Assembly: GCA_002716405.1 (NCBI GenBank)
Contig: PBBA01000004.1
Location: 2,482 to 66,481 of the forward strand
Origin: Chloroflexota bacterium
Lineage (GTDB): Bacteria > Chloroflexota > Dehalococcoidia > UBA2979
Length of the DNA stretch: 64,000 bases
Reading direction: 5' to 3'
Shown here: in pieces, positions 2,284 to 55,079 of the stretch
Position numbering within the stretch: position 1 is the first letter of the stretch
How the letters are laid out: every line of letters begins with the position of its first letter
Notes under the pieces: generated by a model
What the model was told of the DNA's origin: nothing
What the model saw: the letters and a program-made list of their open reading frames with translations, nothing else
Database searches by the model: none
Translations under genes and position numbers: made by a program

Positions 2284-2450
2284 TTATTTGAATCCTTCTA
2301 ATTACATTAATTTCTATCTACCTAAACTATCTAATATCTTTTGAATTTCAGCATTATAGAGTGCAATTAGATGGATATTATGAGTACGATACTTATTGCA
2401 CTGCTGGTTTATTTATCAGTAGTAAGTTGCTCCGAGAGAGAAATAAAAGT

Positions 2451-2645
2451 ATGTCTAGACTCACACTAACTGGAATAATATTCATTATTTTAGGAATAAT
2501 ATCTCTAATTATTCAAAATACTTTTTATGGGTATTTAGATGCAGATGGAGTGCTCCATGATAGCTTATTTCTACCTCTCACTTTTATATTTGCATTAATA
2601 GGTTTAATTATCGTAATGATAGATCTATTCCTTAAGGTTCGCTAA
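2451..2645 (+). CDS. Small two-TM membrane protein (hypothetical)
   Basis: The track ORF starts at GTG 2361. An internal ATG at 2451 precedes two clear hydrophobic helices (LTGIIFIILGIISLII and LPLTFIFALIGLIIVMI). No recognisable family. Confidence 0.4.
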   Translation: MSRLTLTGIIFIILGIISLIIQNTFYGYLDADGVLHDSLFLPLTFIFALIGLIIVMIDLFLKVR

Positions 2646-2752
2646 GAAACATCTTTTTCAATATCCTTTATAGATCTTATAGTTATTCGATTGACAAATT
2701 ATCTATAAATATGAGTAACTAAGTCAACATTAGCTCGCAACAGGAGAAATTA

Positions 2753-3832
2753 ATGTCACTCAATGTAGTTGGAATGATTGGTGCGAACCCCAGCAAAGGT
2801 GATACACCTGTCTCTATTATAGGTGGTGGTATTGATGTAGATTACCTAAACCGCTTCACACAAGCTCATGAAAAAAGTGCATTCGATGCCGTACTAGTTG
2901 GATATAGATCTGATTCTGCGGAAAGCTTTGCAGTAGCACAAGCTGCAGCTGCAGCTACTAAACAGATAAAATTCCTCGTAGCACATCGTCCTGGTTTTGT
3001 TGCTCCGACATTGGCAGCACGTAGAGCATCAACTGTTGACATCTTCACAGGTGGACGTATTGGTGTACATTTCATTACAGGAGGAAGTGATGCAGAACAA
3101 AGAAAAGATGGCGACTTCTTAGAACATGATGATCGTTATAGACGTACCGATGAATATCTAACTGTCTTCCGCAAAGCACTCAGACAGGATTCATTCAATC
3201 ATAGTGGCACATACTACCAATTGGAGAATGCCTCAAGTGCGGTGCAATCCCATCAAGAACCTTCAATCCCTATCTACTTCGGGGGTAGCTCTGACATCGC
3301 CTTAGATATTGGTGCACGGCAAGCTGATGTCTATATGTTTTGGGGAGAGCCAAGGGCAGCAATTCAACAACAGATAGAAGATCTGAATATCCGTGCTACA
3401 AGCCATGGAAGAAATCTCGAATATAGTGTGTCATTCAGACCGGTAATCGAAGATACAGAATCCTTAGCATGGGAAAAGGCACGCGAATTCTTAAATGCAG
3501 TTGAGTCTAATTTAGCATCGAACCCTATACCAAAAAGATCATCAATTGGTTCAAAAAGATTACTGGATTTTGCTAATCAATCTGATCTCCATGATGAACG
3601 TTTATGGATGCCTCTTGCTGCAGCCACTGGAGCTTCAGGTAACACTTCAGCTCTAGTTGGGACAGCAGAACAAGTAGCTGATTCACTTCTGAAATATTAT
3701 GAATTAGGAGTAGGTACTGTTCTTATTCGTGGTTGGGATCCTTTTCAAGATGCCATCGATTACGGTAAAGAATTGATACCAATCTTGAAATATGAAAGTT
3801 CAAAAGTTCGGGAGGTAGTCAAAAATATTTAA
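2753..3832 (+). CDS. FMNH2-dependent luciferase-like monooxygenase, SsuD/alkanesulfonate-monooxygenase-like
   Basis: Collinear with E. coli SsuD as I recall it: KFLVAHRPG...PT.AAR...T.D, FITGG, YFGGSSD, WGEP and ALVGT..QVA. RBS-like AGGAGA lies upstream. Confidence 0.75.
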   Translation: MSLNVVGMIGANPSKGDTPVSIIGGGIDVDYLNRFTQAHEKSAFDAVLVGYRSDSAESFAVAQAAAAATKQIKFLVAHRPGFVAPTLAARRASTVDIFTGGRIGVHFITGGSDAEQRKDGDFLEHDDRYRRTDEYLTVFRKALRQDSFNHSGTYYQLENASSAVQSHQEPSIPIYFGGSSDIALDIGARQADVYMFWGEPRAAIQQQIEDLNIRATSHGRNLEYSVSFRPVIEDTESLAWEKAREFLNAVESNLASNPIPKRSSIGSKRLLDFANQSDLHDERLWMPLAAATGASGNTSALVGTAEQVADSLLKYYELGVGTVLIRGWDPFQDAIDYGKELIPILKYESSKVREVVKNI

Positions 3833-3834
3833 TC

Positions 3835-4380
3835 CTATGTACTTGATAACTCCAAAATTTTTGTTCTAAATAAATCCTGCCCATGACTGATATTCTTACC
3901 CCAACTTTCTGATGCATTCTCATCAGCATTATCCGAAATGTATTTAAAACATAAAAAATCAACATTTTTATAAAAGCAAACTTTTGCAATAGCATAAGCT
4001 TCCATATCAACCAAATCAGTATCCAATTGCGGTAATTCAGTAACAAAACTATCACCACTACCACAGGAAAAACCTTCCCGTCCAAATGAAATTTCCGAAA
4101 TTTCATCAAACGGAGTTTTACCTACTTCTAATCCTAAAGCAGAAACATCCATATCTCTTTGAAAAAAACTTGATACCTCCACAAGTCCCTTTAAATCACG
4201 CCTTAAACTACCTGCTGTTCCATAATTTATGATGGTTTTTGGAGAAAATTGATGGATTAATTCACTGGTCTTAAATGCCGCATTTACTTTACCGACCCCT
4301 GTATATTCGATGTGAAAATTAGGTAATACCATCTGTGGCAACTCTTTCTCAAGTGCTACCAAAACAATCACCTTATCCAT
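3835..4380 (-). CDS. Short MTA/SAH nucleosidase-like (Pfs/MtnN, PNP_UDP_1 family)
   Basis: Motifs GVGKVNAA, NYGTAGS, SGDSF, DMEAYAIAKVC and ISDNAD are collinear with Pfs. At 181 aa it is shorter than E. coli Pfs. Confidence 0.7.
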   Translation of the reverse strand: MDKVIVLVALEKELPQMVLPNFHIEYTGVGKVNAAFKTSELIHQFSPKTIINYGTAGSLRRDLKGLVEVSSFFQRDMDVSALGLEVGKTPFDEISEISFGREGFSCGSGDSFVTELPQLDTDLVDMEAYAIAKVCFYKNVDFLCFKYISDNADENASESWGKNISHGQDLFRTKILELSST

Positions 4381-4401
4381 AACAATATTCTTCCAATTCA
4401 G

Positions 4402-5349
4402 CTAATTAATGCCTCTTAGAACTTCAATATGATCAGGACCAATGCCGCAACACCCCCCAATAATTTGAACCCCACTATCTTTCCATTTTTGTGCATAATC
4501 TTGAAATATAGAAGGTTCAATAATATCGACAAACTGCCAACTAGGTCTTTGAAAATAACCACAATTGGGATAGACACCTATTGCACCGTCCCAATACTTT
4601 TTTAAAGCTTCTATCCCCAAAGTTGTATCATCAACATTACTATGCATGATGTGAATAGATGCAGCATCATATTTTGTGACCGCTTCTAAGGTTTCATCAA
4701 AACTTCTATTAAGATCATCGTACATATACAATTTTTCTGCAGTTCTTAATGAACTTGAGGCAATATTCCCATCTTTTCCACTTCTGCAGCTCATTCCAAT
4801 CCAAACATCTACACCAGCCTTCATAGACTCCTCAATCGCGGGAATTGCCACCTCAGGCTCTTGCATCATTTCAAGCATGATGAGATCGGCACCAGCCTCA
4901 ACTAATATTTCGCTTTGTTCTCTATACGTTGCTCTTAATCGAGCTGGTTGAGACCATTTAGAAGCTAGACCCATACCGTCTGCAAGGAAATCGGAAATAG
5001 AACCAGCAATAGCAATTTCTGTCATACCAGTTTCACGAATTGCTTCCTTCGCAATATCGACCGCAGCTGTATTAATTGCTCTAACTTCATCTCCAAACCC
5101 TGCCGGTTCAAGCACTTGGCGAGAGGCGGCAAAAGTATTGGTGATCAAGACTTCAGCACCTGCAAAAATATAATCTTTATGAATTGATTTAAGAACTTCA
5201 CTATGAGTAGTTACTGAAGGACTACACCAAGCATTTTCATCCATAGGTACACCACGGCGCTCTAATTCTGAACCAGTAGCACCATCAAGAATAATTTGTC
5301 CACCATCACTTAATCGTTCCCTAAGCCAAGATGGTGTTGCCATAATCAA
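4402..5349 (-). CDS. Homocysteine S-methyltransferase family protein (second paralog)
   Basis: Motifs DGATGSELERRG, TNTFAASR and GGCCGIGPDHI. Paralog of 1306-2283. Confidence 0.85.
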   Translation of the reverse strand: MIMATPSWLRERLSDGGQIILDGATGSELERRGVPMDENAWCSPSVTTHSEVLKSIHKDYIFAGAEVLITNTFAASRQVLEPAGFGDEVRAINTAAVDIAKEAIRETGMTEIAIAGSISDFLADGMGLASKWSQPARLRATYREQSEILVEAGADLIMLEMMQEPEVAIPAIEESMKAGVDVWIGMSCRSGKDGNIASSSLRTAEKLYMYDDLNRSFDETLEAVTKYDAASIHIMHSNVDDTTLGIEALKKYWDGAIGVYPNCGYFQRPSWQFVDIIEPSIFQDYAQKWKDSGVQIIGGCCGIGPDHIEVLRGIN

Positions 5350-5357
5350 ACCTCATA

Positions 5358-6323
5358 CTATTCACTCAATTCAGGAATAACCCAAAGAGGATCATCACCC
5401 CGTGCAACTCTCTGTACATTATCAAACCCATTACGAACACGCGCTGAAAAACTTTCAAAAGTTGGCCCTGCTAAATGTGCAGTGAGAATAACATTTCCAA
5501 GTCGAAATAAAGGATTATCTTCAGGAGGTGGCTCTTGCTCAAAGACGTCTAATCCAGCTCCAGATATTATCCCCTCTGCAAGCGCTTTATATAGAGCAAA
5601 TTCATCAACAATTGGACCGCGCGCAGTATTTATTAGAATAGAATCGGATTTCATCAAAGCTAATTCATCCGCACCTACCATATGGTGAGTTGATGAATTA
5701 TATGGAACATGTAGTGAAATGATGTCGGAATTTAGAAAAATTTCACTCAAAAGATTAAATTTGACTCCTAATGCATCTTCCTCATCTTCAGTCAGGCGAT
5801 CGATATCATAGTAGTTGACTTTCATACCAAAGGCTAAAGCACGGCGAGCAGTTTTTTTTCCGATAGTTCCTAGTCCAATAATCCCTAATGTTTTACCACT
5901 TATTTCATGCACACGAGGAGTGACTTCACCACGCCATTTGCCTGCAGTAACAGTTGTATGCTGTTCAACTAACTTACGTGAAACAGCAAGCATTAACATT
6001 AATGCATGCTCGGAAACTGCTATTGAATTTGCACCTCCGTTATTAGCAATTGGTATAGCGTATTGTTTTGCAGCTTGAATATCAGCTTTATCATATCCTG
6101 CACTCAGTAATTGGATTAAACGAAGATGTTGGGCTTCTTGATACAGCTTTTCATTTACCAGACTATCAACAAAACCAACCAAATATTCTGCATCAGTAAG
6201 TGCTTCCTTATACGCGCTACTATGAGCCTCTGCAATTACAAGATTAAATCCAGATGGTGCTATCGAACGAGCTTCATCAGCAGCATCAGGAAAATCAGTT
6301 ACAAAAACAATCTTAGGATTCAT
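5358..6323 (-). CDS. D-isomer-specific 2-hydroxyacid dehydrogenase (NAD-binding)
   Basis: Rossmann motif GIIGLGTIGKKTARRA. The catalytic region has NTARG and a C-terminal H in TAHLAG. Confidence 0.85.
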   Translation of the reverse strand: MNPKIVFVTDFPDAADEARSIAPSGFNLVIAEAHSSAYKEALTDAEYLVGFVDSLVNEKLYQEAQHLRLIQLLSAGYDKADIQAAKQYAIPIANNGGANSIAVSEHALMLMLAVSRKLVEQHTTVTAGKWRGEVTPRVHEISGKTLGIIGLGTIGKKTARRALAFGMKVNYYDIDRLTEDEEDALGVKFNLLSEIFLNSDIISLHVPYNSSTHHMVGADELALMKSDSILINTARGPIVDEFALYKALAEGIISGAGLDVFEQEPPPEDNPLFRLGNVILTAHLAGPTFESFSARVRNGFDNVQRVARGDDPLWVIPELSE

Positions 6324-6431
6324 TATGCCTCCTGAACCACATTAAATGGATACCAAGTTTACAATTAATGACACGTTTGTAATTAAGGTTTTTTATACCT
6401 TACGATAATTTTTTTCAGTAAAGTAACACTT

Positions 6432-7037
6432 ATGCATAGAATAAATAGTATTGAAGAATTAGCACACCATGAAGCTTCACATGCTGTTGTTAACTACTAT
6501 TTCAATCATCCCGTAAGAAGACTTGACCTCACAACATACGATGAAAATTCACCAACGGTCTTTGAATACATACCCATATACGGTGAAAACCGGATGTTTA
6601 CAAAAAATGATGGAAAAGAATATGAATATATAGCTAACCAATCAATTATCGCACTTATGGCAGGGGGACTAGGTGGGCAGCTAGCAACAGGTCAATTTAA
6701 TACTGATGGTTGTATTAATGATTTGAGAAAAGCAAGAGAACTCATTTCATACTTACTGTCAAAAGACAACGAAATAGCCAGTGAAAATAAAATGCGATCT
6801 CTTTTCGGACAGTGCCTTGGAGAAGCGAAGGAATTAATTGAACAAACACCTCATATTCAAAAACAAATCTCAGCTTTAGCTAGTTCATTATTAGAAAAAA
6901 AACAACTTTCAGGTACAGAAGCTATCAATATAATTAATGCTTCTACCCCTGAAATTGTTAATCGATCAAAAGACGCTATTCCAGAAGTCGAAATCCAAGA
7001 AAGACGTATGTATAGTACTGAAAACCACTACGCGTAA
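6432..7037 (+). CDS. Stand-alone FtsH-like (peptidase M41-like) zinc metalloprotease domain protein
   Basis: HEXXH motif (HHEASHAVV, compare FtsH HEAGHA). Downstream GG..A.G....G..NDL.KA resembles the M41 core. No AAA+ module and no TM segment. Confidence 0.5.
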   Translation: MHRINSIEELAHHEASHAVVNYYFNHPVRRLDLTTYDENSPTVFEYIPIYGENRMFTKNDGKEYEYIANQSIIALMAGGLGGQLATGQFNTDGCINDLRKARELISYLLSKDNEIASENKMRSLFGQCLGEAKELIEQTPHIQKQISALASSLLEKKQLSGTEAINIINASTPEIVNRSKDAIPEVEIQERRMYSTENHYA

Positions 7038-7111
7038 GTGTCAGAACAGCAATACTATTGCTTTCTTTAACAGGACAGTTACTATGCGTACATATGTGAG
7101 AAGAGGCTACC

Positions 7112-7918
7112 ATGGACTTTGAAGATTTATTATTTGAAAAAGACGGTGATGTCGCAATTATTACTCTTAATAGACCCGATAGAATGAATGCTATGAGTGC
7201 AGCAATGACCCAAGGAATGTTAGATTTAGTCCGTGAAATGGGAAAAAATTCAGATATAAAAGTAATCGTACTGACTGGTGCTGGACGCGGATTTTGCGTC
7301 GGAGCAGACGTTAGTAATTTATCAAAAATTACTGGTGCTGATGGAAAAGAACCTGAACCGAGACCTGTAACATTGCCTCACTCTTGGGAAAGCGCTCAAT
7401 TGGTTTTTGCACAGTGTGACAAACCAATTATCGGTGCAATTAATGGATATGCTGTTGGTGCCGGTTTTGGATTGGCACTTACACCAGATATACGTATCGC
7501 ATCTGCTGATGCAAAGTTTGGTGTTTTACAAACAAAACGTGGCCGGCGACCAGATGGTGGCTTAAATTTCAGACTCCCGAGAATAGTTGGTGTACAAAAA
7601 GCCTTGGAGTTAATGTGGACAGGTGAAATGATCGATGCGGAAGAAGCCTTAAGATTAGGACTTGTATTAAGAGTGGTAGAACACGACGATCTCATGGAGG
7701 AAACACTCAAATTTGCACATGAAATTGCGAAAGGGCCATCGATTGCACAGGCATTAGCAAAACGGATGGTATATAAAACAATGTTCCCAGAGTCAGATCA
7801 CATCGCAGCAGCAGAAATGGAATATTACACAGGAATTCTTATCAACAGCACAGAAGATGCTAAAGAAGGAGTTCGAGCATTCGTTGAAAGACGTGATCCA
7901 GAGTTCAAGGGGAGGTAA
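7112..7918 (+). CDS. Enoyl-CoA hydratase/isomerase (crotonase) family
   Basis: ITLNRPDRMNA, LTGAGRGFCVGADV, INGYAVGAGFGLAL and the C-terminal EGVRAFVERRDPEF are classic crotonase features. Confidence 0.9.
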   Translation: MDFEDLLFEKDGDVAIITLNRPDRMNAMSAAMTQGMLDLVREMGKNSDIKVIVLTGAGRGFCVGADVSNLSKITGADGKEPEPRPVTLPHSWESAQLVFAQCDKPIIGAINGYAVGAGFGLALTPDIRIASADAKFGVLQTKRGRRPDGGLNFRLPRIVGVQKALELMWTGEMIDAEEALRLGLVLRVVEHDDLMEETLKFAHEIAKGPSIAQALAKRMVYKTMFPESDHIAAAEMEYYTGILINSTEDAKEGVRAFVERRDPEFKGR

Positions 7919-9105: not shown

Positions 9106-10323
9106 TTAATTCTTTCCGCGCTGCATTTGATTCTCCATGCCTTCAGGTAGTTCAACATTTGCATCATCAAAAGCTTTGCGGGTTACAGCAGCACGCGGAG
9201 AAAATATATCATCTCGATGGCTTGAAACCCAATCACGTCCAGCTTGCGTGGTTTGAATCATATTTTGAAAATGAGGCATTACAAATCGCGCCCACAATTC
9301 ATAAGAACGAAATGTTGCCTCTGGTTCAGCCCATTCATGCGCTAATCCCATAAAACCACCAAAACCTCCTGTCAGATCGATTAATCCTTCTATGAACTCA
9401 ATAGCATCATCAGGTGTTCCAACAATTGCACCACCACGTTCAATCATTGATTCGATACTTTCTGTATCAGAAGAAGGAGTTCGACCAAGAGTTTCGCCAA
9501 AATATTCAACATTATATGCATGCGATCCTTCACGAACTTCATCGATAGCTCGCTCTCTGGATTCTGCCAAATGCACTGGAATGACTAACCGCCAATCATC
9601 TCTCGATAAAGATGTCCCATGAAGCTGAGATTGTTCCATAGCCCAATTCCACGCTTCAGGAAGAGCAACTAAAGCTCCAGGTTGAAATGCAGCCATTGAT
9701 AGTAATCCTGCTCCAAATTGTCCCGCTGCCATTGGGCCAGCAGGAGAAAATCCATGTGCAACTGCAATCGGCAAATGAGGTCGTGTATATGAAGCAATTT
9801 GTAAACGTGCATCGCGAAGTGTAAACCAATCTGTTGTCATATTCACAGGTTCTTCTGCTTTCAATAAAGCAACAATAGCCTCCAATGACTCCATCATCAT
9901 TTCACGTTGTTTTGTTGCATCAATACCCAACATATATGCATCTGAAGTTAAAGCACCTGGACCCACACCAAACATTGCTCGCCCTCGTGTCATGTGGTCT
10001 AACTGCACCATTCGATCTGCAACTATGAGTGGATGGTGATACGGTAAGCTAGTCACTCCAGTACCAAGGCGTATGGTACGAGCTCGATTTGCTAAAGCTG
10101 CGATGACTAAGCCTGGATCAGCAATAAGTTCCCAACCAGCACTATGATGTTCACCTATCCAAACTTCATCGAAACCTAATCGATCAAGATGTTCAATTAA
10201 TGCCATATCGCGATCAAGAGCAAGAGTTGGATTTTGTCCTGTCTTATGAAAAGGTGCTAAAAAAATTCCAAATGACATTCTATCTGGGCGATACGTCATA
10301 GTATTCCTAATCTCTAAAAACAT
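9106..10323 (-). CDS. Luciferase-like monooxygenase (LLM class flavin/F420-dependent oxidoreductase)
   Basis: FGIFLAPFH, GFDEVWIGEHH and LGTGVTSLPYHHPL..A are LLM TIM-barrel signatures. The start may be an internal Met (M9 or M16 of the track ORF). Confidence 0.8.
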   Translation of the reverse strand: MFLEIRNTMTYRPDRMSFGIFLAPFHKTGQNPTLALDRDMALIEHLDRLGFDEVWIGEHHSAGWELIADPGLVIAALANRARTIRLGTGVTSLPYHHPLIVADRMVQLDHMTRGRAMFGVGPGALTSDAYMLGIDATKQREMMMESLEAIVALLKAEEPVNMTTDWFTLRDARLQIASYTRPHLPIAVAHGFSPAGPMAAGQFGAGLLSMAAFQPGALVALPEAWNWAMEQSQLHGTSLSRDDWRLVIPVHLAESRERAIDEVREGSHAYNVEYFGETLGRTPSSDTESIESMIERGGAIVGTPDDAIEFIEGLIDLTGGFGGFMGLAHEWAEPEATFRSYELWARFVMPHFQNMIQTTQAGRDWVSSHRDDIFSPRAAVTRKAFDDANVELPEGMENQMQRGKN

Positions 10324-30470: not shown

Positions 30471-32966
30471 ATGGGAAATATAAAGCAATCTATCGCAAAA
30501 AAATTACTCAATAACGAAAAAATCTCTCTACTTGAGGCATACGATTTAATTGATTTAGATACTGATACAAATATTTTTAAATTAGCTTCTTCCATTCGCG
30601 ATCACGGATTTGGGAATACTGTTACGTATTCAAAAAAGGTTTTTATTCCTCTTACTAAACTCTGCAGAGATGTTTGCCACTATTGCACATTTGCACAACC
30701 ACCTCAACCTGGTGAAAACGCATATTTAAGGCCTGAAGAGGTATTAGAAATTGCACGACAAGGAAAAGCTGCTGGCTGCCATGAAGCGCTTTTTACACTA
30801 GGTGATAAACCTGAACTACGTTATCCGTCCGTAAGAGAAGAATTAGCCCTACTTGGATATGCAACAACTATTGACTATCTGATTGCAATGGCAGAATTGG
30901 TATTCCAAGAAACTGGTCTGTTACCGCATGCAAATCCCGGTGTAATGAGTAGAGAGGACATGATTAAACTTAGAGCCGTATCTCCCTCTCAAGGAATCAT
31001 GCTTGAAACAATCTCCAATAGACTTTCTGAAAAAAATATGCCGCATTTTGGTTCACCAGATAAAGATCCTGTAAAACGCTTAAATACTATACGTTTAGCT
31101 GGGGAACTAAAAATTCCATTCACTTCAGGAATTCTTATTGGGATTGGAGAAACTAGAAAGGAACGAATTGATTCACTTTTCGCACTCCGTGAACTTAATG
31201 ATGAGTATGAGCACATTCAAGAAATAATTATACAGAATTTCCGTGCGAAACCTGGTACAAAAATGGCCTCAGCACCTGAGCCTGATCTTGATGACTTACT
31301 TTGGACTATCGCAATTACAAGATTTATTTTCGGACACACGATGAGTATTCAAGCTCCACCAAACTTAACTCCCCATATCTTTAACCAACTAATCCATGCA
31401 GGGTTAAATGATTGGGGAGGAGTCTCCCCAATCACACCTGATTACGTAAATCCTGAAGCTCCTTGGCCGGAATTAATTGAACTATCCGAAAGAAGTGCTC
31501 AACAAGGAAAAGTTTTAGTAGAACGATTGACTGTTTACCCTAAATATATACATACCTCTGAAGAATGGGTAGATAAGAAATTCTGGCAACCAATTTTCAA
31601 CACCATTGATACTGAAGGATTGGTTAGATCGGACAGTTGGAGTCCTGGCGACGAATTATCGAACCCACCTGCTTCCTTAACACCTGACCAAAATGGGATT
31701 TGGCCACTCGATGGCCTCACTGGAACAAATGAAGTTACAAATATCTTGGAGAAAATTTCACAAAAAATAGAACTAACAGAAGCCGAAATAATCCGACTCT
31801 TCCAAGCGCGCGGAGATGATATAGCTAAAATTAATGAAGAAGCGAATAAGTTAAGAAAACATGTTTCAGGTGACATAGTGACTTATGTCGTAAATCGTAA
31901 TATCAATTATACAAATATCTGTTACTTCAAATGTCAGTTTTGTGCATTTTCAAAAGGAAAGCTGGCAGAAAATCTTAGAGGAACACCTTATGACCTTGAT
32001 TTAGAAGAAATAGCAACTCGTACTCAAGAGGCTTGGGAAAGAGGTGCTACTGAAGTTTGTATGCAAGGTGGTATTCACCCAGATTATACTGGGAGCACTT
32101 ATTTAGAAATTCTTGAAACAGTAAAAAGTGTTCAACCCAATATGCACGTGCATGCATTCTCTCCTTTAGAAGTGTGGCAAGGTGCTGCAACTCTTGGAAT
32201 TCCTTTAAAAATATATCTTACTCAGCTTCACGCTGCTGGATTAGGATCTCTACCTGGAACTGCGGCTGAAATATTAGATGACGAAGTTAGAAAAAACCTC
32301 TGTCCTGACAAAGTTAATACAGAACAATGGTTACACGTAATGGAGACTGCGCATTCAATTGGTCTTCCTTCAACTGCAACAATAATGTACGGGCATATAG
32401 AACAGACAAAGCATTGGGCGCGCCACTTGCTCCGTATAAAAAAGTTACAACAAAAAACAGGAGGTTTTACAGAATTTGTTCCTTTACCATTTGTACATAT
32501 GGAAGCCCCCATCTATCTCAAGGGACGTGCACGAAAAGGTCCTACATATCGTGAAGCGATACTCATGCATTCTGTATCACGCCTAGTTCTCCATCCTGAC
32601 ATTAAAAATATTCAGGTGTCTTGGGTGAAAATGGGGCCTAATGGTATCCGTGCATCACTTCTTGCAGGTGTCAATGATCTTGGGGGTACATTAATGAACG
32701 AAAGCATTACAAGATCTGCAGGGGGAGAATTTGGGGAGGAACTATCACCAGAAAAAATGGACCACATAATCGATTCAATTGGACGCAAGCCACAACAGAG
32801 AACAACAAAGTATGTAAATTCCAAAGACGATCAAATCTCGCGATCATATGGAACATCACCTTTACCAAAACGTACAGTGAAAGCTTCAAAAAACTGGCTG
32901 CGCAAAACTGATCAAATGCTTATACGACCAGGTTTTGAAAAAGAAGTGCTCGATCCTCATCGTTAA
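30471..32966 (+). CDS. fbiC: Bifunctional FO synthase (7,8-didemethyl-8-hydroxy-5-deazariboflavin synthase, CofG+CofH fusion)
   Basis: Two radical-SAM CxxxCxxC motifs (CRDVCHYCTF and CYFKCQFCAF) in an 831-aa protein. The domain order matches fused FbiC. Confidence 0.9.
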   Translation: MGNIKQSIAKKLLNNEKISLLEAYDLIDLDTDTNIFKLASSIRDHGFGNTVTYSKKVFIPLTKLCRDVCHYCTFAQPPQPGENAYLRPEEVLEIARQGKAAGCHEALFTLGDKPELRYPSVREELALLGYATTIDYLIAMAELVFQETGLLPHANPGVMSREDMIKLRAVSPSQGIMLETISNRLSEKNMPHFGSPDKDPVKRLNTIRLAGELKIPFTSGILIGIGETRKERIDSLFALRELNDEYEHIQEIIIQNFRAKPGTKMASAPEPDLDDLLWTIAITRFIFGHTMSIQAPPNLTPHIFNQLIHAGLNDWGGVSPITPDYVNPEAPWPELIELSERSAQQGKVLVERLTVYPKYIHTSEEWVDKKFWQPIFNTIDTEGLVRSDSWSPGDELSNPPASLTPDQNGIWPLDGLTGTNEVTNILEKISQKIELTEAEIIRLFQARGDDIAKINEEANKLRKHVSGDIVTYVVNRNINYTNICYFKCQFCAFSKGKLAENLRGTPYDLDLEEIATRTQEAWERGATEVCMQGGIHPDYTGSTYLEILETVKSVQPNMHVHAFSPLEVWQGAATLGIPLKIYLTQLHAAGLGSLPGTAAEILDDEVRKNLCPDKVNTEQWLHVMETAHSIGLPSTATIMYGHIEQTKHWARHLLRIKKLQQKTGGFTEFVPLPFVHMEAPIYLKGRARKGPTYREAILMHSVSRLVLHPDIKNIQVSWVKMGPNGIRASLLAGVNDLGGTLMNESITRSAGGEFGEELSPEKMDHIIDSIGRKPQQRTTKYVNSKDDQISRSYGTSPLPKRTVKASKNWLRKTDQMLIRPGFEKEVLDPHR

Positions 32967-47288: not shown

Positions 47289-47867
47289 CTATGATTCTTC
47301 TGGTCGAGCAAAGCCATGAAAACCTTCAGAACCAGGTTCAACGTCAAAGGAACGTAACTGAAAAGCAACCATAGTATAGAATCCTAATAGACTAGACATT
47401 TCTGTGAGCCCACGCTCTCCAAAAAGTCTAATGACCTTACTATACAAGTCATCAGATAATGATTTACCTCCTAACAAGGTCATTGAAAGATCATAGGTTA
47501 CCAGGATATCTTCTCTGTCTGAAACAGGGCGATTCCCTATTTGAACATCGTCTAGTACCGACTGAGGAATCCCATACTCCACAGCACGATCAGCATGTGT
47601 CCACTCAACATTCGATTGCCAATAATACGCAGCAACTGAAATAGCTAATTCTACAATCCCTCGATGAAGCGATGTTTTCTCCCAAAACCATAGCCCAAAT
47701 GTGCGCATTTGGTGACATAATTCAGGGCTACGGAACCATGGATCATAAGGACCACCCCAATAACCAGATTCGGGTACACCTTTATAAAAACGTACTAAGC
47801 TGTCAAATTCTGTTTTAGTGACTTCATCCATAGTATCTGGATCAGGTATCGGACCTAAGCGACTCAT
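47289..47867 (-). CDS. Carboxymuconolactone decarboxylase (AhpD-like) family protein
   Basis: About 190 aa and helical. Collinear with CMD-family proteins (...W..SPEL......G......SL.....ELAI...A..W....EW..H...A...G.........FGERG..E...L.GFY.MVA). Confidence 0.6.
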   Translation of the reverse strand: MSRLGPIPDPDTMDEVTKTEFDSLVRFYKGVPESGYWGGPYDPWFRSPELCHQMRTFGLWFWEKTSLHRGIVELAISVAAYYWQSNVEWTHADRAVEYGIPQSVLDDVQIGNRPVSDREDILVTYDLSMTLLGGKSLSDDLYSKVIRLFGERGLTEMSSLLGFYTMVAFQLRSFDVEPGSEGFHGFARPEES

Positions 47868-49082: not shown

Positions 49083-50084
49083 TCATTGAATAACCCAATG
49101 GAGAGGTTCACTTTTACGCCATCGCATCAAGTTTTCAAAAAATCTTTGCGCTGATCTCTCATGATATTTATCAGAGATTGCCGAATTATGTGGAGTTACA
49201 ATTACATTAGGTAGTGTCCAAAGAGGTGAAACTGGTGGCAAAGGTTCTTCTTTAAAAACATCAAGATAGGCACCACCTAGATGTCCCGAAATTAATTTTT
49301 GCGTTAGAGATTCTTCATTAATTACAGGACCACGAGATACATTTATTATTCGGGAACCTTTCGGTAACTTTGACAAACGCTCAGCACTAATCAAACCTTC
49401 AGTTTCATCATTAAGTGGGCAAGAAAGTACTAACCATTCTGCCCTATGTAAAAGATTGTCTAACTCACTATTATCATATATCTCATCGACACCTTCAGGT
49501 ATGTCACTGACATTGCGTCTAATCCCAATCACATGCATCCCAATCGATTTTGCATATCGTGCCACACGTCTCCCTATCTCACCTAAACCAATAATCAACA
49601 ATGTTTGACCACCGATATCAGGAGGTGCGTCATCATAATGAATCGGAGCCCAAACACGCTCGATCTGAGATTCTCTCCAATACTTAAAAGGGCGTCCCAA
49701 CCAAAGTATAGCCGCCAATACATTTAGTGCTATCGGCTCTGCATTGGCACCAGGAGAATTTGTAATTGATATATCTCGATTACTAAGTTGAGGGAAATTT
49801 TTGGGATTTATACCCACAGCAAAAAAATGTAACCATTTTAAGTTTTTTGCACGCGCTAAAGTTTCCAAAAATATATCACGCCTATACCGAATATCATTCG
49901 AAAAAAAAGCAACTTGTACATTACTTAAAATGTCCTCGGGTATTATTTGATCATTATCAACATCAATAATAATGCGAGTTGTTTGTACACCGGGACCTGA
50001 TTCTACTACAGATAATTCCGAATCAAATCTCTCAACAAATTTTTTACTAAGTAGTACACCAAAATCCATTATCTTTTCCTGCAA
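49083..50084 (-). CDS. D-2-hydroxyacid dehydrogenase (NAD-binding), last gene of the selenoprotein operon
   Basis: LLIIGLGEIGRRVARYAKSIGMHVIG Rossmann motif. N.SRGP.I.E..L, YLDVF..EPL and TPH. Confidence 0.8.
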   Translation of the reverse strand: MQEKIMDFGVLLSKKFVERFDSELSVVESGPGVQTTRIIIDVDNDQIIPEDILSNVQVAFFSNDIRYRRDIFLETLARAKNLKWLHFFAVGINPKNFPQLSNRDISITNSPGANAEPIALNVLAAILWLGRPFKYWRESQIERVWAPIHYDDAPPDIGGQTLLIIGLGEIGRRVARYAKSIGMHVIGIRRNVSDIPEGVDEIYDNSELDNLLHRAEWLVLSCPLNDETEGLISAERLSKLPKGSRIINVSRGPVINEESLTQKLISGHLGGAYLDVFKEEPLPPVSPLWTLPNVIVTPHNSAISDKYHERSAQRFFENLMRWRKSEPLHWVIQ

Positions 50085-50096
50085 TATATAACCATA

Positions 50097-51179
50097 TTAA
50101 AATGAAACAATTGGGCGAGTTATAGCTTTCTCAGTAGCCCCCCATGTTGGAACAAAAGTAGCTTTAATACCCACCCCACCTGTAACGATAATAAGTATAT
50201 CTTCAGGTGATATTGCAGAAAATATATGCTCTGATTCTGCAATACCAAGTTCAATACGATTAGCTGTTATTCGAGAAACAGCGTGTGGAGACAACCAAGA
50301 TAAAGGCGTTTTTGATTCATCATACAAAGCTTCTTGAAATCTTTCTCGATCCCAGCCTTGTTCAGAAAGGAATTGTGCAGCTTCAGGGGGAAGAAGAATT
50401 GCAGGTTGACCTCCACCAAAAGATTGCCTTCCCAAATTACCTGCGATGAGCATCGATCGAGACATAGTACGCACCAAATCTTCAGCTGTGGTCTGTGGAA
50501 GTACAACTTCCACACTCCCAACACCTGCTATGACTGTCACCGTACTCTCATCAAGTTTAAATCCTCTTGTAGTATGAAAAGGTGGCCACACACTACCTTC
50601 TTCATTTTCTGCGATTAACCAAGTATATTTACCAGAATGACCATGTGTTGCCATATCACCACTACCGGGAATAGCAAAGGCGATGTTTTGTAAAGCCAAA
50701 CGAATTGCTCGCCCTATAGTTGCATTTGGTTTCGATCCTTGCCCGAGAACATTATGAGAGTTGTTAATACGGAGTTCGTTAATTATTGGACCATTGAGAG
50801 TGATTAGTGGTGCGGCAGCTCCCGTGGTCGTTTGAATGCCGAGAAGATTGAACTCAGGATCTGTCATAGCGTCTAAAGCTGAGGCAATTAATGGAACAAC
50901 TCCAAGATCACAGCCAGCCAAAACTGCACATGCAGCAATATCTCTTAAGTTTGGAATCACAAAGCCTGGGGGAAGTGGCATTTGAGTCGCAGATAATGTT
51001 GGATCCAAACTACCCAGCATTTGGTCAATTTTTTCAGCAGTAGGTGCAATTACAGGTAAACCGTCTGTAAGTCCAGCATTATAAAGTACTATATTAGCAC
51101 TATCTGCACTTGTGAATTCATCTTCAAGGTCAACTAATCGTTCACAGATAGGACGGATATCTAACGGTGGAGTTGTCAT
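50097..51179 (-). CDS. Uncharacterised conserved protein, paralog B of a tandem pair
   Basis: Shares ordered motifs with 51193-52269: TDGLP(V/I), AGC, EFNL.GIQ.TT, LNGPI, G.G...N.TIGRA.RLAL.NI, PG.GD.ATHG, AENE and GG.G......PT.G. No family recognised. Confidence 0.6.
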   Translation of the reverse strand: MTTPPLDIRPICERLVDLEDEFTSADSANIVLYNAGLTDGLPVIAPTAEKIDQMLGSLDPTLSATQMPLPPGFVIPNLRDIAACAVLAGCDLGVVPLIASALDAMTDPEFNLLGIQTTTGAAAPLITLNGPIINELRINNSHNVLGQGSKPNATIGRAIRLALQNIAFAIPGSGDMATHGHSGKYTWLIAENEEGSVWPPFHTTRGFKLDESTVTVIAGVGSVEVVLPQTTAEDLVRTMSRSMLIAGNLGRQSFGGGQPAILLPPEAAQFLSEQGWDRERFQEALYDESKTPLSWLSPHAVSRITANRIELGIAESEHIFSAISPEDILIIVTGGVGIKATFVPTWGATEKAITRPIVSF

Positions 51180-51192
51180 CAGTAACGTCTAG

Positions 51193-52269
51193 TCAGGAGA
51201 AAATAGAACGAACAGGATCACCATTTGCCGTCTCTATTCTACGTGAAACGGTATCAGTACCTCCAAATGTAGGTAACCAACATGAATGTTTACCTGGTCC
51301 CCCAGCTACTATTACATCAATATCATTCCAAGTTTCAGCGACACGAAAACCTTCTGGATGTACTGCACCAGCCGTGCCGCTTCTTCCTCCGTCTAACCAA
51401 TCTTGAGCTTGATCGCTAAATTTGAGTATCGTATTTTCCCAAACAAACTTTTTCACATCGTCTTTAGAATAACCATCGTGAGCTATTTGCTCAGCATGCT
51501 CAGGACCAAAAATTATCATTGGTTCACCTCGACCGCCGATATTATTACTACCAGACTGTCTTAATGATGTGGTCACTGTAGTTAAAAGGCCCTTACCACT
51601 AATGCTTCCATGATCATTAATGTTATGTGGAGCTTCACAAGCTAACACCGTAACAACATTATCATCCTTAGCAAATCCATTTTCCACATGAAGTGGTTCC
51701 CAAGGGTTTGCGGTTTCGTTTTCTGCAGTACAAAAAGAAATTTTTGCTGGTGTACCGTGGGTAGCACGGTCACCATCACCAGGAGTGCCTCCTCCTATGT
51801 TAAGAAGTGCCAAACGTACAGCACGTCCTATTGTCATATTAGATCTAGTGCCTTGTCCAAAACAGTTCGGGCCACTGTTTATCCCTATTTCTTGTGCGAT
51901 TGGACCATTCAAAAGTACAAACACTGCACAAGGGTGTGTAGTAGATTGGATACCATTTAAATTAAATTCATCTTCAGCAACGGCTTGCAATGCAGCAATT
52001 ACAACAGGGAAATATTCTGGACGACACCCTGCCATCACCGCATTCGTGGCAATCCGTTCCAGAGTTGCTTCACCGTTGCGTGGACCCAAAGTTGCGATTA
52101 CATCATCGTTACTCCAATCAACGTACTGACAAATTTCTTCAACACGTGAGCGAGTCGGTGGCACAATGGGTAAACCATCAGTCCATCCTTGTGTTTCAAA
52201 AAAGTCTTGCACAGCTTCTAATGAATCTTCTAGTTCAACAATTGGTGGCAGATCAAGATTAACTGACAT
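51193..52269 (-). CDS. Uncharacterised conserved protein, paralog A of a tandem pair
   Basis: See 50097-51179. A GAGGAA RBS lies 4 nt upstream of the ATG. 13-nt gap to paralog B. Confidence 0.6.
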   Translation of the reverse strand: MSVNLDLPPIVELEDSLEAVQDFFETQGWTDGLPIVPPTRSRVEEICQYVDWSNDDVIATLGPRNGEATLERIATNAVMAGCRPEYFPVVIAALQAVAEDEFNLNGIQSTTHPCAVFVLLNGPIAQEIGINSGPNCFGQGTRSNMTIGRAVRLALLNIGGGTPGDGDRATHGTPAKISFCTAENETANPWEPLHVENGFAKDDNVVTVLACEAPHNINDHGSISGKGLLTTVTTSLRQSGSNNIGGRGEPMIIFGPEHAEQIAHDGYSKDDVKKFVWENTILKFSDQAQDWLDGGRSGTAGAVHPEGFRVAETWNDIDVIVAGGPGKHSCWLPTFGGTDTVSRRIETANGDPVRSIFS

Positions 52270-52333: not shown

Positions 52334-52855
52334 CTAATCAGCACCCATTAAGCTACTTACTGAAGAAGCAGCATCTGGAACTTTTTTCAACACTTCTTCA
52401 GGATCGATACCTCCAAGCGGATGTTCGATAGTGATAATCCGTAAATCAGGAAAACCCATAGCACGAGCCTGGAGGTGTGCTAACTGAATAAAAGCACTAG
52501 TAGCTAAAGTAACTGTTGGAGTTCCTCTTTTTTCAAGTTCTACTGAAGCGTGGATACTCCACGCTGTGCAAGAACCTCAATCAGCACTCCCAACCATTAC
52601 CCAGTCATTTTCAGCAGCCAACTCGTCAAGTATCGCTGGGTCAGCGGGAGTTGAAACTGGCTTGTGACGAGTCATGGAGTGAATTACTCCATATCGCTGA
52701 CCTAATTCTTCGGCAATAGAAGTCATCACAAGTTCTGCATGTTGTTTCCCATTTTCCAGAACACCAACTATCGATTCCCTTATTTCAGGAAAATCTTCTA
52801 GTTCACCTACAGCTGCAGGTTCTGGAGCAGTAGGGTTATGTAATTCAATAACCAT
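52334..52855 (-). CDS. Predicted selenoprotein with UGSC motif (in-frame UGA = Sec at 52577-52579), 173 aa
   Basis: The track ORF 52577-52885 ends at TGA. The same frame continues ...VMVGSAD-U-GSCTAWSIHASVELEKRGTPTVTLATSAFIQLAHLQARAMGFPDLRIITIEHPLGGIDPEEV... for 80 codons to TAG 52334-52336. A hairpin lies immediately 3' of the TGA. Start taken as ATG 52855, which has AAGGAG 6 nt upstream; the track start was TTG 52885. Confidence 0.75.
52536..52576 (-). promoter_or_regulatory. Candidate bacterial SECIS hairpin directly downstream of the UGA
   Basis: Read on the minus strand: lower stem GGUUCU/AGAACU (6 bp, one G-U), a 5x5 internal loop, a perfect 8-bp upper stem AGCGUGGA/UCCACGCU, and apical loop GUA about 20 nt after the UGA. 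Confidence 0.6.
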
Positions 52856-52917
52856 GTCATTCTCCTTAACGTTACTTGTATCCAAACATAAACCGAAAAA
52901 CTTCTCAAGTATTTATC

Positions 52918-53802
52918 TTAAATACCTATTAAGTTTTCTGGATTTTTACATACCATTTGATGTACTTGATCAGCGTCAAAGCCTACTTCTAAAAGGCATT
53001 CAATCCACATACCCATCCCTAGAGGTGGTGACGGATTATTGATCTGTCCCAAGTCAGTTGAGGCGATAATTTGCTCAACACCAACTGCTTTAATTTGTTC
53101 AGCAATAGATCGTACTGACTCACCATCATCATTCCGAAATGCAGCTAACCCACAGTGTTCAATATATACACCAAGACCTGCAAGTTCTTGTTGAACTTCG
53201 ACAGGAATACCAAATGAAGCATGAGTTATGACACTACGTATTCCACGCTCACGAGCTATTCGCAACAACACCAAAGTTTCTTGAGGTGAAATATGACCAC
53301 TGGCTAAAACAGCATCGTGACTAGCTATTTCATCTAAAATATCATGGCATTCAGGTAACAATTCACCCGCATCATTAAGAATTGGAATACCAGCACCCTT
53401 ACTAAAAAAATTACCACCTCGATCGCGATAAGCTGCTGAATCAAAAGTAGGCATCCAAATTACTGTTGCACCAATAGCAAGAGAGACTGCAACTGCGTCA
53501 GGATTCAAGCCTCCAACTCCCCAATCAAGAGCTACGCTACCATAGACATCTATACCATCAAATTCCGTATCAAGTGCCCAAGCAATAGGTTGTGTCGCAT
53601 AATCATGACTCTTCAGGACCAACCCACCCATCCCAGCTTCGATCGCTGAAACAACTAGTTCACGAGAGTCGGTCCGCCTTTCTGTATAGGGATCTGGAGC
53701 AGCATGAACATGCATATCTATCGCACCGCGTATAATATCCTTTACCTCAGGTCTTAATTCATCTAAGTTCGTTGCTTGTAAAGCTGAAAAAGTCATTTGC
53801 AC
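52918..53802 (-). CDS. Amidohydrolase-fold metal-dependent hydrolase (DUF6282-like by recollection), first gene of the selenoprotein operon
   Basis: N-terminal metal motif IDMHVHAAPD, then GMGGLVLKSH. Further His/Asp positions (ASGH, ITHASF, STDLGQ) are spaced as in TIM-barrel amidohydrolases. Confidence 0.6.
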   Translation of the reverse strand: MQMTFSALQATNLDELRPEVKDIIRGAIDMHVHAAPDPYTERRTDSRELVVSAIEAGMGGLVLKSHDYATQPIAWALDTEFDGIDVYGSVALDWGVGGLNPDAVAVSLAIGATVIWMPTFDSAAYRDRGGNFFSKGAGIPILNDAGELLPECHDILDEIASHDAVLASGHISPQETLVLLRIARERGIRSVITHASFGIPVEVQQELAGLGVYIEHCGLAAFRNDDGESVRSIAEQIKAVGVEQIIASTDLGQINNPSPPLGMGMWIECLLEVGFDADQVHQMVCKNPENLIGI

Positions 53803-53897: not shown

Positions 53898-55079
53898 ATG
53901 AGAAGAACATTAAATATTTTTTTTGTTGCCCTGAAATTAGGCTTTATTTCCTTTGGTGGTCCTGTAGCTCATCTCGGATATTTTCGTGAAACATATGTAC
54001 AAAATTTAGAGTGGCTTGACGATACAACATTCGCAAAGTTGGTTGCTTTATGCCAAATATTACCTGGGCCAGCAAGTAGCCAAGTCGGAATGGCAATTGG
54101 AGCCTTGCGTGGAGGTGTATGGGGAGGATTATTTTCATGGGCCGGATTCACATTACCCTCTGCCGTAGTATTAATATTTTTCGGATTTGCTATAGATAGC
54201 TTTAATTTACAAGATAGTGGGTGGATGGTAGGTTTAAAAATCGCAGCAGCAGCAGTAGTCGCCAATGCATTATGGGGAATGTCTCGCTCATTAACACCAG
54301 ATAGAGCACGTATTACAATAGCGATAATTGCTGCGATTTTATTGCTTTACGAAAGAACAATTATTACACAAATACTTATTCTTGTTGCTGGAGCAGTTAT
54401 TGGATGGAGATTAAAACTATCACCAATTAGTAATTTTAAACCTACTCAAAATCTTCATTGGAAACTAAACAAAATAATCGCTATCAGTTCGATAGTGATA
54501 TTCTTTTTATTGTTGATACTTTTGCCGATTTTGAGAGAATTTTATACTTCACAATACACATCTTTATTCGACAGTTTTTATAGAACTGGCTCTCTAGTTT
54601 TTGGAGGAGGTCATGTTGTATTGCCTTTACTTGAATCAGAGGTGGTCTCATCAGGTTGGTTAAGTAAAGATGAATTCATTGCAGGTTATGGAGTTGCTCA
54701 GGCCATTCCAGGACCTTTGTTCACATTTGCTGCATATATAGGAACAGTGGCAAATATTGAACCAAATGGATTAAGCGGTGCACTTATAGCATTATCTGCT
54801 ATTTATTTACCTTCTTTTTTATTATTAGCTGCTGTTTTACCGTTTTGGCAACAATTTACAATGAACCACAAATTAGAAGCTGCCTATGCAGGGATGAATG
54901 CTGCAGTTATCGGACTTTTGGTGGCGGCTTTTTATAATCCAATATGGACACATACAATCACAACTGCTTCATATTTTTCATTATGGTTAATTGCAACAAC
55001 ACTATTAATGGTTTGGAAAACCCCACCATGGATAGTAGTTTTACTTTCTGCCGTAGGTGGATACGTTTTAGAATTATAA
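53898..55079 (+). CDS. chrA: Chromate transporter (CHR family, ChrA-like)
   Basis: Duplicated CHR domain with FGGP.AH.GYF and a second-half FGGGHVVLPLL. Multi-TM protein. Confidence 0.8.
   Translation: MRRTLNIFFVALKLGFISFGGPVAHLGYFRETYVQNLEWLDDTTFAKLVALCQILPGPASSQVGMAIGALRGGVWGGLFSWAGFTLPSAVVLIFFGFAIDSFNLQDSGWMVGLKIAAAAVVANALWGMSRSLTPDRARITIAIIAAILLLYERTIITQILILVAGAVIGWRLKLSPISNFKPTQNLHWKLNKIIAISSIVIFFLLLILLPILREFYTSQYTSLFDSFYRTGSLVFGGGHVVLPLLESEVVSSGWLSKDEFIAGYGVAQAIPGPLFTFAAYIGTVANIEPNGLSGALIALSAIYLPSFLLLAAVLPFWQQFTMNHKLEAAYAGMNAAVIGLLVAAFYNPIWTHTITTASYFSLWLIATTLLMVWKTPPWIVVLLSAVGGYVLEL

Follow-up and report, generated by a model that had tools for sequence, protein, structure and literature searches.

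The minus strand of the window (the whole 64-kb stretch of DNA analysed here, from a marine Dehalococcoidia bacterium that is probably SAR202-like) carries an intact gene of the UGSC family of selenoproteins at positions 52334..52855, delimited by its translation and by matches to the family models NF041046 and PF24696. Its 173 codons are followed by a TAG stop, and an in-frame UGA at codon 93 (52577..52579, minus strand), in the column that is Cys in full-length homologs, is to all appearances read as selenocysteine (Sec). We consider it highly probable that this gene of a known family encodes a selenoprotein whose Sec is specified by a SECIS hairpin; the protein would carry out redox or nucleophilic chemistry in a complex with the product of its neighbour, a 358-residue protein referred to here as N358.

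As the preliminary description had stated, the minus-strand reading frame meets the TGA and then runs on through 80 further codons before reaching TAG at 52334-52336, and our translation of this extension is identical to the peptide given there. The TGA lies in the context GAT TGA GGT TCT TGC, corresponding to D-U-G-S-C, residues 92-96 of the 173-residue product. In the list of open reading frames the frame begins with TTG at 52885, but ATG at 52855 is the likelier start, because a Shine-Dalgarno sequence, AAGGAG (52862..52867, minus strand), can be seen directly in the sequence 6 nt upstream of it, and because six public assemblies call the same ATG. Gene callers in these assemblies start there and stop after 92 residues, leaving an N-terminal fragment, and call a spurious 41-residue ORF further on; that the gene is still truncated in this way in all six is the sole practical lesson of the identification. 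The open frame is weak evidence when taken alone, since 80 codons would stay open by chance with a probability of ~0.005 per frame at the local base composition and the 64-kb window contains 59 TGA-split frames, almost all of which merely shadow real genes. Two observations place this frame beyond chance: PF24696 matches across the TGA, and the TGA itself recurs in a related MAG and in six independent metagenome assemblies.

Profile searches with the 173-residue product gave 129.5 bits against NF041046 (cut-off 125; TGA taken as Sec/Cys) and 142.9 bits against PF24696 (cut-off 25; E=1.4e-41), the latter over residues 7-170, across the TGA, on a model of 172 positions. With both scores above cut-off, the identity suggested earlier, 'UGSC family (seleno)protein', was borne out, and this is the name in use at NCBI. 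Cys homologs align full length through the TGA, where they carry a nearly invariant D-C-G-S-C, and where a homolog seems to stop here, it is another Sec form that gene callers have cut short. The window protein shares with the family a length of about 175 residues, the U/C-G-S-C motif at the same conserved column, a preponderance of Sec over Cys forms and a marine habitat. UGSC proteins have been described in the selenoproteome literature since 2007-2008 and are among the most abundant marine selenoprotein families (Zhang & Gladyshev; PMC1976440, PMC2398784); the gene is therefore neither new nor unusual in aerobes, and the earlier remark that a GrdB-like module would be unusual among aerobic-looking genes does not hold for it. 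Judged by these profile and motif matches, the window protein is a member of an already catalogued family, and its identification is routine, not new. Neither PMC2398784 nor PMC13188914 reports 75Se labelling or mass spectrometry of the family.

Compared with L043, a 99%-identical Dehalococcoidia MAG, the gene shows 15 synonymous and 0 non-synonymous differences 5' of the TGA, and 22 synonymous and 0 non-synonymous differences 3' of it, so that the downstream 80-codon frame is conserved. We also searched genome contigs with a degenerate DNA pattern for the UGSC motif in which TGA, TGC and TGT were all accepted; the homologous loci recovered from GTDB genomes of many phyla carry TGA in 110 cases and TGC in 5. 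A true stop at this position, be it in a pseudogene, at the end of a 92-residue gene with non-coding remains behind it or through an assembly or sequencing error, would agree with the 92-residue calls and the spurious 41-residue ORF in the public assemblies. It would also agree with the lack of visible Sec machinery, as selA, selB, selD and tRNA-Sec were not seen within the 64-kb window, where the sole tRNA is a tRNA-Lys. However, six independent metagenome assemblies agree on the TGA, which recurs in a diverged MAG and in the 110 loci; the differences beyond it are exclusively synonymous, the Pfam alignment and the Cys homologs cross it, and a conserved SECIS hairpin follows it; we therefore regard a true stop as extremely improbable. 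Taken together, the alignment of Cys homologs through the codon, the 22 to 0 ratio downstream and the conserved hairpin show that the UGA at codon 93 is decoded, presumably as Sec in this host. SelA, SelB and SelD domains were likewise not found in the adjoining part of the 167-kb TARA scaffold, and two scans of the 64-kb window for a second selenoprotein candidate, looking at TGA-split frames and C/U motifs, returned only shadows of real genes. A search of the literature on Sec use in SAR202 yielded nothing relevant.

The hairpin, AGCGUGGA-GUA-UCCACGCU (52547..52565, minus strand), is of SECIS type, with 8 bp and a GUA loop; its start lies 11 nt downstream of the UGA, its fold z-score is -3.0, and a weaker lower helix is formed on the same strand by the pairing of 52571-52577 with 52535-52541. 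It is encoded within the codons for T-A/S-W-S-V/I-H-A/D, lies at a fixed position and is retained, with compensatory changes, in 107 Sec-form genes. Across 69 Sec forms, 97.6% of the cells are paired, three pairs show compensatory change and 14 cells are changed on both sides. The window copy, which belongs to a Dehalococcoidia sub-branch, differs from other UGSC members in two such changes, with A-U in place of G-C and G-C in place of U-A, and these alter amino acids on both arms. The U of the loop, and with it the loop G-U, occurs in 107/107 Sec forms against 0/5 Cys forms, and Trp is followed by AGU (101) or UGU (6) in the Sec forms and by AGC in 5/5 Cys forms, a contrast that involves only five Cys-form DNA sequences. 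An apical-loop G is conserved among bacterial SECIS elements (PMC2398784). The UGSC hairpin is unusually constant across phyla, because the peptide encoded by the same nucleotides is the best conserved of the whole protein. In the SECIS of the E. coli fdhF type, the distance from the UGA to the helix is 11 nt and the apical loop holds a G-U; the UGSC hairpin has this spacing, the loop G-U and the location within the coding region in common with it, whereas its loop is only 3 nt long and its stem lacks the bulged U. At gathering thresholds, Rfam returned the tRNA-Lys only and no SECIS match, which we do not count against the hairpin since its bacterial SECIS models are probably lineage-specific. 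The hairpin is a SelB-type SECIS inside the coding sequence, and its 8-bp stem and G-U-N loop would direct Sec to codon 93.

It is also conceivable that the UGA is recoded without always being read as Sec, for instance as Cys under selenium limitation in the open ocean, with the CGSC form then often being the functional protein. Oligotrophic surface water is poor in selenium, and other lineages have functional Cys forms of the family. Yet TGA outnumbers TGC/TGT by 110 to 5 and the SECIS is strictly kept, which together argue for selection for the Sec form and leave such recoding very improbable in our estimation.

The segment following the Sec had been likened in the preliminary description to selenoprotein B of the glycine/sarcosine/betaine reductases (GRDB family), and of this claim a remote homology stands. 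TIGR01917 matches the window protein with E=0.0026 and 16.7 bits (cut-off 602), residues 79-149 falling on profile positions 333-397. Among 15 UGSC members, weak matches were found with TIGR01917 in 12 (best E 4.4e-5), with GrdF in 10, with TIGR01918 in 9 and with GrdH in 6, and the PrdB model is also matched weakly by members of the family. All these matches, at 16-30 bits, lie far below the curated family cut-offs, and Pfam GRDB (PF07355) matches none of the 15 members, even at E<=10. The sub-threshold TIGR01917 alignment would place U93 near profile position 347, and the Sec of GrdB, which we take to be at about position 350 (Sec350), lies within the same stretch. UGSC and selenoprotein B (GrdB/GrdF/GrdH/PrdB) have in common the U-x-x-C centre and a weak, recurrent profile similarity of about 65 residues surrounding and following the Sec. 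Selenoprotein B works with a second, substrate-binding subunit, and UGSC may well do the same.

These shared features, with 12 of the 15 members matching TIGR01917 and others matching GrdF, GrdH, TIGR01918 or PrdB, are what one would expect of a true glycine/sarcosine/betaine/proline reductase protein B, which would here be the subunit of a Stickland-type reductive deaminase in an aerobe. The scores tell against membership, as does the size of the protein: 173 residues, compared with about 240 in PrdB and 430 in GrdB. The second Cys of the UxxCxxC motif of GrdB (PMC13188914) is also missing. Furthermore, UGSC differs from selenoprotein B in its aerobic hosts and in having no recognisable pyruvoyl partner (GrdE/PrdA), GrdA, GrdC or PrdC: neither the Pfam assignments within +/-10 kb nor the 26 window proteins scanned include GrdA, GrdC/D, GrdE, PrdA or PrdC, and the adjacent N358 matches no known family. 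Membership in the protein B family is a claim that has already failed, and we consider it highly unlikely; as far as sequence comparison goes, UGSC would be at most a distant relative of that family. We infer that the broader reading drawn earlier from the same resemblance, that of a substrate-reducing selenoenzyme, may still apply to the UGSC protein.

The AF2 model (pLDDT 93) is that of a 38%-identical Cys homolog of the window protein, with the two window fragments included in the alignment, and it consists of five beta-alpha units. In the PDB it matches azoreductase, WrbA and flavodoxin domains best (E ~1e-4, TM ~0.45), and the 50 best matches listed, which are mostly flavodoxin-like and related alpha/beta domains, include no thioredoxin-fold protein. 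The fold is accordingly predicted to be flavodoxin-like, not thioredoxin-like, with the five-stranded parallel beta/alpha architecture of WrbA, FMN-dependent azoreductase and the flavodoxin domain of flavodiiron proteins. The likeness is one of fold only, as the UGSC model differs from these proteins in sequence (11-20% identity) and in having a Sec/Cys pair as its functional centre; we found no evidence of a flavin site in the UGSC protein. PDB sequence searches with UGSC, N358 and DUF6282, the product of the upstream gene, gave nothing significant. In the predicted model, the Sec caps the N-terminus of helix 3, at the beta3-alpha3 junction, with the resolving Cys three residues on, in the first turn of the helix, a geometry that would suit a selenol/selenenylsulfide redox centre or a nucleophile.

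The same-strand neighbour of the UGSC gene, N358 (51193..52269, minus strand; 358 aa), belongs to a large family without a Pfam or NCBIfam model, with 7,444 representatives at 50% identity. In 109 of ~119 UGSC loci the UGSC gene has an N358-family gene as its same-strand neighbour, and in 24 loci the two are fused in frame, as they also are in library proteins. Fusion of UGSC with a domain named 'Unknown_1' has already been noted (PMC2398784), and this domain probably corresponds to the N358 family. N358 itself matched no family even at E<=10; its AF2 model (pLDDT 84, pTM 0.88) found no convincing PDB match, and its Cys82, in the motif MAGC, is invariant, as is a cluster of His, Asp and Glu residues. 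A class I fumarate hydratase-like Fe-S enzyme was considered for N358 on the basis of the best Foldseek match (E=3e-3) and rejected, as the superposition is poor (TM 0.26-0.31, rmsd ~16 A) and only one Cys is invariant. The window differs from the usual UGSC locus, which has a single N358 gene, in that a diverged paralog, N360 (50097..51179, minus strand; 360 aa), follows; it is 33% identical to N358 and lacks the HN, PEH and GKHS motifs. Both paralogs are also present in the closest relatives (L119 and L124), and two-domain fusions such as P0247 exist.

This near-constant adjacency, with fusion in 24 loci, points to a dedicated partner for UGSC. In the 2008 literature the protein was read as a thioredoxin-fold oxidoreductase (PMC2398784), and its U-x-x-C redox motif would indeed suit a generic, stand-alone thiol-disulfide oxidoreductase of that fold, engaged in antioxidant defence or redox buffering with no dedicated partner or substrate. 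The confident flavodoxin-like model, the linkage and fusion to N358, and the fact that the weak profile matches recur with selenoprotein B models and not with Trx, Prx or Grx all make this unlikely. From gene neighbourhood and fusion, UGSC seems more likely to pair with an N358-family protein, as the smaller subunit of their complex, than to act as a free thioredoxin-like protein, and N358 would then be the catalytic or substrate-binding subunit.

The genes discussed above belong to a five-gene unit within a catabolic island, comprising DUF6282, UGSC, N358, N360 and a 2-hydroxyacid dehydrogenase, with inter-gene gaps of 12-64 nt and no terminator predicted on the minus strand. The first of them (52918..53802, minus strand) matches PF19799 (E=1.9e-57), is separated from the UGSC gene by 62 nt and encodes a DMHVH motif, suggestive of an amidohydrolase-like protein; a DUF6282 gene also adjoins UGSC in two other loci (L012 and L093). 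The last (49083..50084, minus strand) belongs to the D-2-hydroxyacid dehydrogenase family (PF02826, E=4e-49) and lies 12 nt from N360. The adjoining part of the 167-kb TARA scaffold holds more CoA-transferase, enoyl-CoA hydratase and ABC-transporter genes.

We propose a complex in which UGSC is the small subunit and N358, probably accompanied here by N360, would carry the substrate site; N358 has the invariant Cys82. The U-x-x-C centre would attack or reduce an N358-bound substrate or intermediate before being re-reduced by a thiol system, in a chemistry broadly analogous to that of the distantly related Sec region of the glycine and proline reductase B proteins. N358 has no informative structural neighbour that would hint at its chemistry. 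The question of function is accessible to direct test, since the fused TGA form is present in at least one bacterium in culture, Neobacillus bataviensis LMG 21833; Hyphomonas neptunium is another cultured carrier.

Beyond what was known of the family, this analysis adds the remote link to reductase B, the predicted flavodoxin-like fold and the adjacency and fusion to N358. Its value lies in the question of UGSC function, which is narrowed here to a probable complex with a large unannotated family. It is possible, though we advance this only tentatively, that UGSC and N358 (with N360 here) form a widespread, uncharacterised selenoenzyme of two or three subunits, distantly derived from the Sec module of reductase B set on a new catalytic partner, which would contribute to organic acid or amine degradation in aerobic heterotrophs by catalysing a reductive or nucleophilic step. 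If so, the hosts of such a selenoenzyme would include marine Dehalococcoidia, Acidimicrobiia, Rokubacteria and Burkholderiales.

The window carries an intact gene of the UGSC family of selenoproteins (52334-52855, minus strand) with a conserved SECIS hairpin, which is linked, and in other genomes fused, to a gene of a second family, here called N358 after its 358-aa member in the window. Translation from 52855 to 52334 gave 92 residues, an in-frame TGA (52579-52577), 80 further residues and a TAG at 52336-52334, the minus-strand codons around the TGA being GTT GGG AGT GCT GAT TGA GGT TCT TGC ACA GCG TGG. This confirms the TGA-truncated gene with an open frame beyond it reported in the preliminary description, whose quoted read-through peptide is identical to the translated extension and whose main interpretation, a UGSC protein with Sec at the TGA, is supported. 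In the ORF list the part before the TGA begins at TTG 52885; ATG 52855 is preferred as start codon, since it has an AAGGAG 6 nt upstream and is used by gene callers in six public assemblies holding the same locus. In these assemblies (L001-L006; e.g. L001, 9415-9693 and 9811-9936), the UGSC call ends at 92 aa, and a spurious ORF of 41 aa is called inside the true C-terminal half. Of the 59 TGA-split frames listed for the window, nearly all shadow real genes; an 80-codon open frame is by itself unremarkable, and it is the family match and the decoding evidence that carry weight.

For profile scans of the 173-aa protein, Cys was put in place of the TGA. As first proposed, the protein belongs to the UGSC family: NCBIfam NF041046, 'UGSC family (seleno)protein', was matched at 129.5 bits (cut-off 125) and Pfam PF24696, 'UGSC', at 142.9 bits (E=1.4e-41), the latter over residues 7-170 on a 172-position model, so that the match crosses the TGA. 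Profile searches recovered 625 family members, several of which are named 'UGSC family (seleno)protein' by NCBI, and in rare cases UGSC is joined to a NifU domain (PF01106) or to a lumazine-binding domain (PF00677; P0184, P0195). In a collection of 5.8 billion proteins, full-length homologs with C-G-S-C at the TGA column, which answers the earlier question of whether that column holds Sec or Cys, align to the end of the protein. Two homolog clusters, one of them the window's own, end at ..SAD; they represent Sec forms that gene callers have cut short, and not homologs that genuinely stop at this position.

The family is already known and curated, and the window gene is a correct re-discovery of it. 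A 'UGSC-containing protein' was described in 2007 as a selenoprotein of unknown function in Hyphomonas neptunium and North Pacific gyre metagenomes (PMC1976440); in the Global Ocean Sampling analysis, where Sec forms outnumbered Cys forms by 255 to 21, the family stood among the marine selenoprotein families of highest abundance (PMC2398784); and a 2026 review lists it, as NF041046, among selenoproteins with uncharacterised functions (PMC13188914). Its occurrence in an aerobe, initially thought unusual, is thus to be expected of an abundant marine family. The gene content of the window, with a flavin amine oxidase, acyl-CoA dehydrogenases, CoA-transferases and methylmalonyl-CoA mutase, is consistent with a SAR202-type aerobic marine heterotroph. 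The window further holds a fused radical-SAM FO synthase (CofG/CofH type, 831 aa; 30471-32966, plus strand) together with several luciferase-like monooxygenases (coordinates given: 2753-3832, plus strand, and 9106-10323, minus strand), which fit the catabolic repertoire of an F420- or flavin-rich marine Chloroflexota (SAR202-like).

Evidence that the UGA is decoded comes from conservation. The identical locus, TGA included, is present in six independent marine metagenome assemblies (TARA Oceans, JGI, NCBI). In a Station ALOHA MAG labelled Dehalococcoidia bacterium ALOHA_A2.0_7 (L043), the UGSC protein is 99% identical to that of the window while the DNA has diverged, with 15 synonymous and 0 non-synonymous codon differences before the TGA and 22 and 0 after it. 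The frame beyond the TGA is therefore under purifying selection and, with Cys homologs aligning through it, is conserved, a point the preliminary description had left to be checked. We also searched a single genome of each GTDB species with a degenerate pattern accepting TGA, TGC or TGT at the critical codon, which gave at least 119 stretches, five chance matches without UGSC homology being removed. Among the matches listed, the codon is TGA in at least 110 loci and TGC in at least five; the hosts include Acidimicrobiia and other Actinomycetota, Rokubacteria/Methylomirabilota, Burkholderiales, Chloroflexota/Dehalococcoidia, Dormibacterota and Myxococcota. SelB would deliver Sec at UGA93. The only tRNA gene of the window is a tRNA-Lys, and scans of the window for TGA-split frames and C/U motifs found no second selenoprotein candidate.

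The helix of the hairpin, AGCGUGGA-GUA-UCCACGCU (52565-52547, minus strand; fold z-score -3.0), begins 11 nt past the UGA, and the same hairpin occupies the same position in almost every Sec form. Its spacing and G-U loop match those of the E. coli fdhF SECIS, which has an 11-nt spacing and a G-U loop. Across 69 distinct sequences, 97.6% of cells pair, against 20-49% with the partner arm shifted by 1-3 columns, and both-sided changes occur in three of eight pairs (14 cells), a result matched by none of 500 shuffles. The common form is GUCGUGGA/UCCACGAC; that of the window differs at two base pairs, each changed in a compensatory way (G-C to A-U, U-A to G-C), so that each arm encodes a replaced residue (S to A, D to A). 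The loop reads G-U-N; its U is present in 107/107 Sec forms, and the Ser codon that supplies it is AGU in 101 and replaced by UGU in six. All five Cys-form sequences have AGC, and the helix is gone from two. Bacterial SECIS elements are recognised by a conserved G in the apical loop (PMC2398784).

A Cys homolog was modelled with AF2 on a 66-sequence alignment to which the two window fragments belonged. The model has five beta-alpha units (pLDDT 93, pTM 0.89); the Cys equivalent to Sec follows strand 3 and precedes helix 3, whose first turn holds the second Cys. Among PDB structures the model is closest to FMN-dependent azoreductase, WrbA and flavodoxin domains from flavodiiron proteins (E about 1e-4, TM about 0.45), and no thioredoxin-fold protein is among the best 50 listed. 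The predicted structure does not support the thioredoxin-like fold suggested in 2008 (PMC2398784).

N358 itself (51193-52269, minus strand) is followed by a 33% identical paralog, N360 (50097-51179, minus strand). It has no Pfam or NCBIfam match, none being consistent among 31 members even at E<=10, although the family comprises at least 8,000 clusters at 90% identity and 7,444 representatives at 50% identity (4,926 with E<=1e-10), all called 'hypothetical protein' by the sources that name them. N358 and UGSC are very strongly linked: among the loci listed for the UGSC motif, 109 have a homolog of N358 adjoining UGSC on the same strand (80 downstream, 29 upstream), and the five without one are cut by the locus edge. 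In 24 loci the two form a single reading frame with no stop except the Sec codon. Library proteins of ~540-565 aa are complete Cys-form fusions (P0256); those of ~420-450 aa, which begin within the UGSC C-terminal half (P0248, P0255), are Sec-form fusions cut by gene callers, which start at an internal GTG past the TGA; and those of ~710-740 aa carry two N358 domains (P0247), comparable to N358 plus N360. A UGSC fusion with a domain called 'Unknown_1' has been observed (PMC2398784), and N358 is very probably this domain.

Invariant residues of N358 include D31-G-L-P, P38-T39, A80-G-C82, Q108-x-T-T, R149, D167, K176, E183, H194 and P256-E257, followed by a nearly invariant H258, and a G-G-x-G-K-H-S motif lies near the C terminus. 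Its AF2 model (pLDDT 84, pTM 0.88) has class I fumarate hydratase as best PDB match, which is too weak to accept (E=3e-3, TM 0.26-0.31). Fused copies occur three in tandem on one Chloroflexi contig (L032, JACPQD010000044.1, about 2370-7700) and twice each in L030, L065 and L117. A fused gene with TGA and the standard hairpin is found in Neobacillus bataviensis LMG 21833 (L014, NZ_AJLS01000097.1, about 1420-2990), a cultured aerobic Bacillus-group isolate and possible experimental model. A MAG labelled Candidatus Nitrosocosmicus sp. (L007, DASRWT010000003.1, about 4170-5680) holds a UGSC-N358 pair with a bacterial-type in-frame SECIS; since archaeal SECIS elements normally lie in untranslated regions, this contig looks like mis-binning or recent transfer.

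The proposed likeness to GrdB held as remote homology and failed as family membership. The window protein matched TIGR01917 (GrdB) at E=0.0026 (residues 79-149, profile positions 333-397), and among 15 UGSC members scanned singly, 12 matched this model (best E 4.4e-5), 10 the GrdF model, nine TIGR01918, six the GrdH model and one the PrdB model. As no unrelated family recurs likewise among their matches, we accept a remote relationship around the Sec region, as judged from these profile similarities. Membership is rejected, with scores hundreds of bits under the cut-offs and no match by UGSC members to Pfam GRDB. GrdB and PrdB are, moreover, much longer proteins, the second Cys of the GrdB UxxCxxC motif (PMC13188914) is absent from UGSC, and no reductase partner genes lie within 10 kb on either side.

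In the window, DUF6282, UGSC, N358, N360 and a 2-hydroxyacid dehydrogenase form a five-gene unit with gaps of 12-64 nt and no terminator predicted within it. A chromate-transporter-family gene (53898-55079, plus strand) separates this unit from an upstream minus-strand block of Fe-ADH, CoA-transferase, enoyl-CoA hydratase, acyl-CoA dehydrogenase and PQQ-propeller genes; a 192-aa ORF without Pfam match (47289-47867, minus strand), between MFS transporter and Ldh_2-family dehydrogenase genes, is kept in 6/6 assemblies. Among UGSC-motif loci no neighbour is conserved as strongly as N358, the next commonest being short-chain dehydrogenase (23 loci) and Bug-type binding protein (15), then amidohydrolase, enoyl-CoA hydratase, acyl-CoA dehydrogenase and CoA-transferase (8-11 each).

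We propose that the small flavodoxin-like UGSC protein would dock on N358 (with N360), and that its U-x-x-C centre would cycle between selenol/thiol and selenenylsulfide, attacking or reducing a substrate or intermediate held by N358 before being re-reduced by a cellular thiol system. A loose parallel would be the chemistry of the glycine and proline reductase B proteins. The catabolic surroundings of UGSC, which vary between loci, suggest that it helps to process small organic acids or amines, and it is the UGSC-N358 partnership, with the unmodelled N358 family, that makes the finding worth pursuing.
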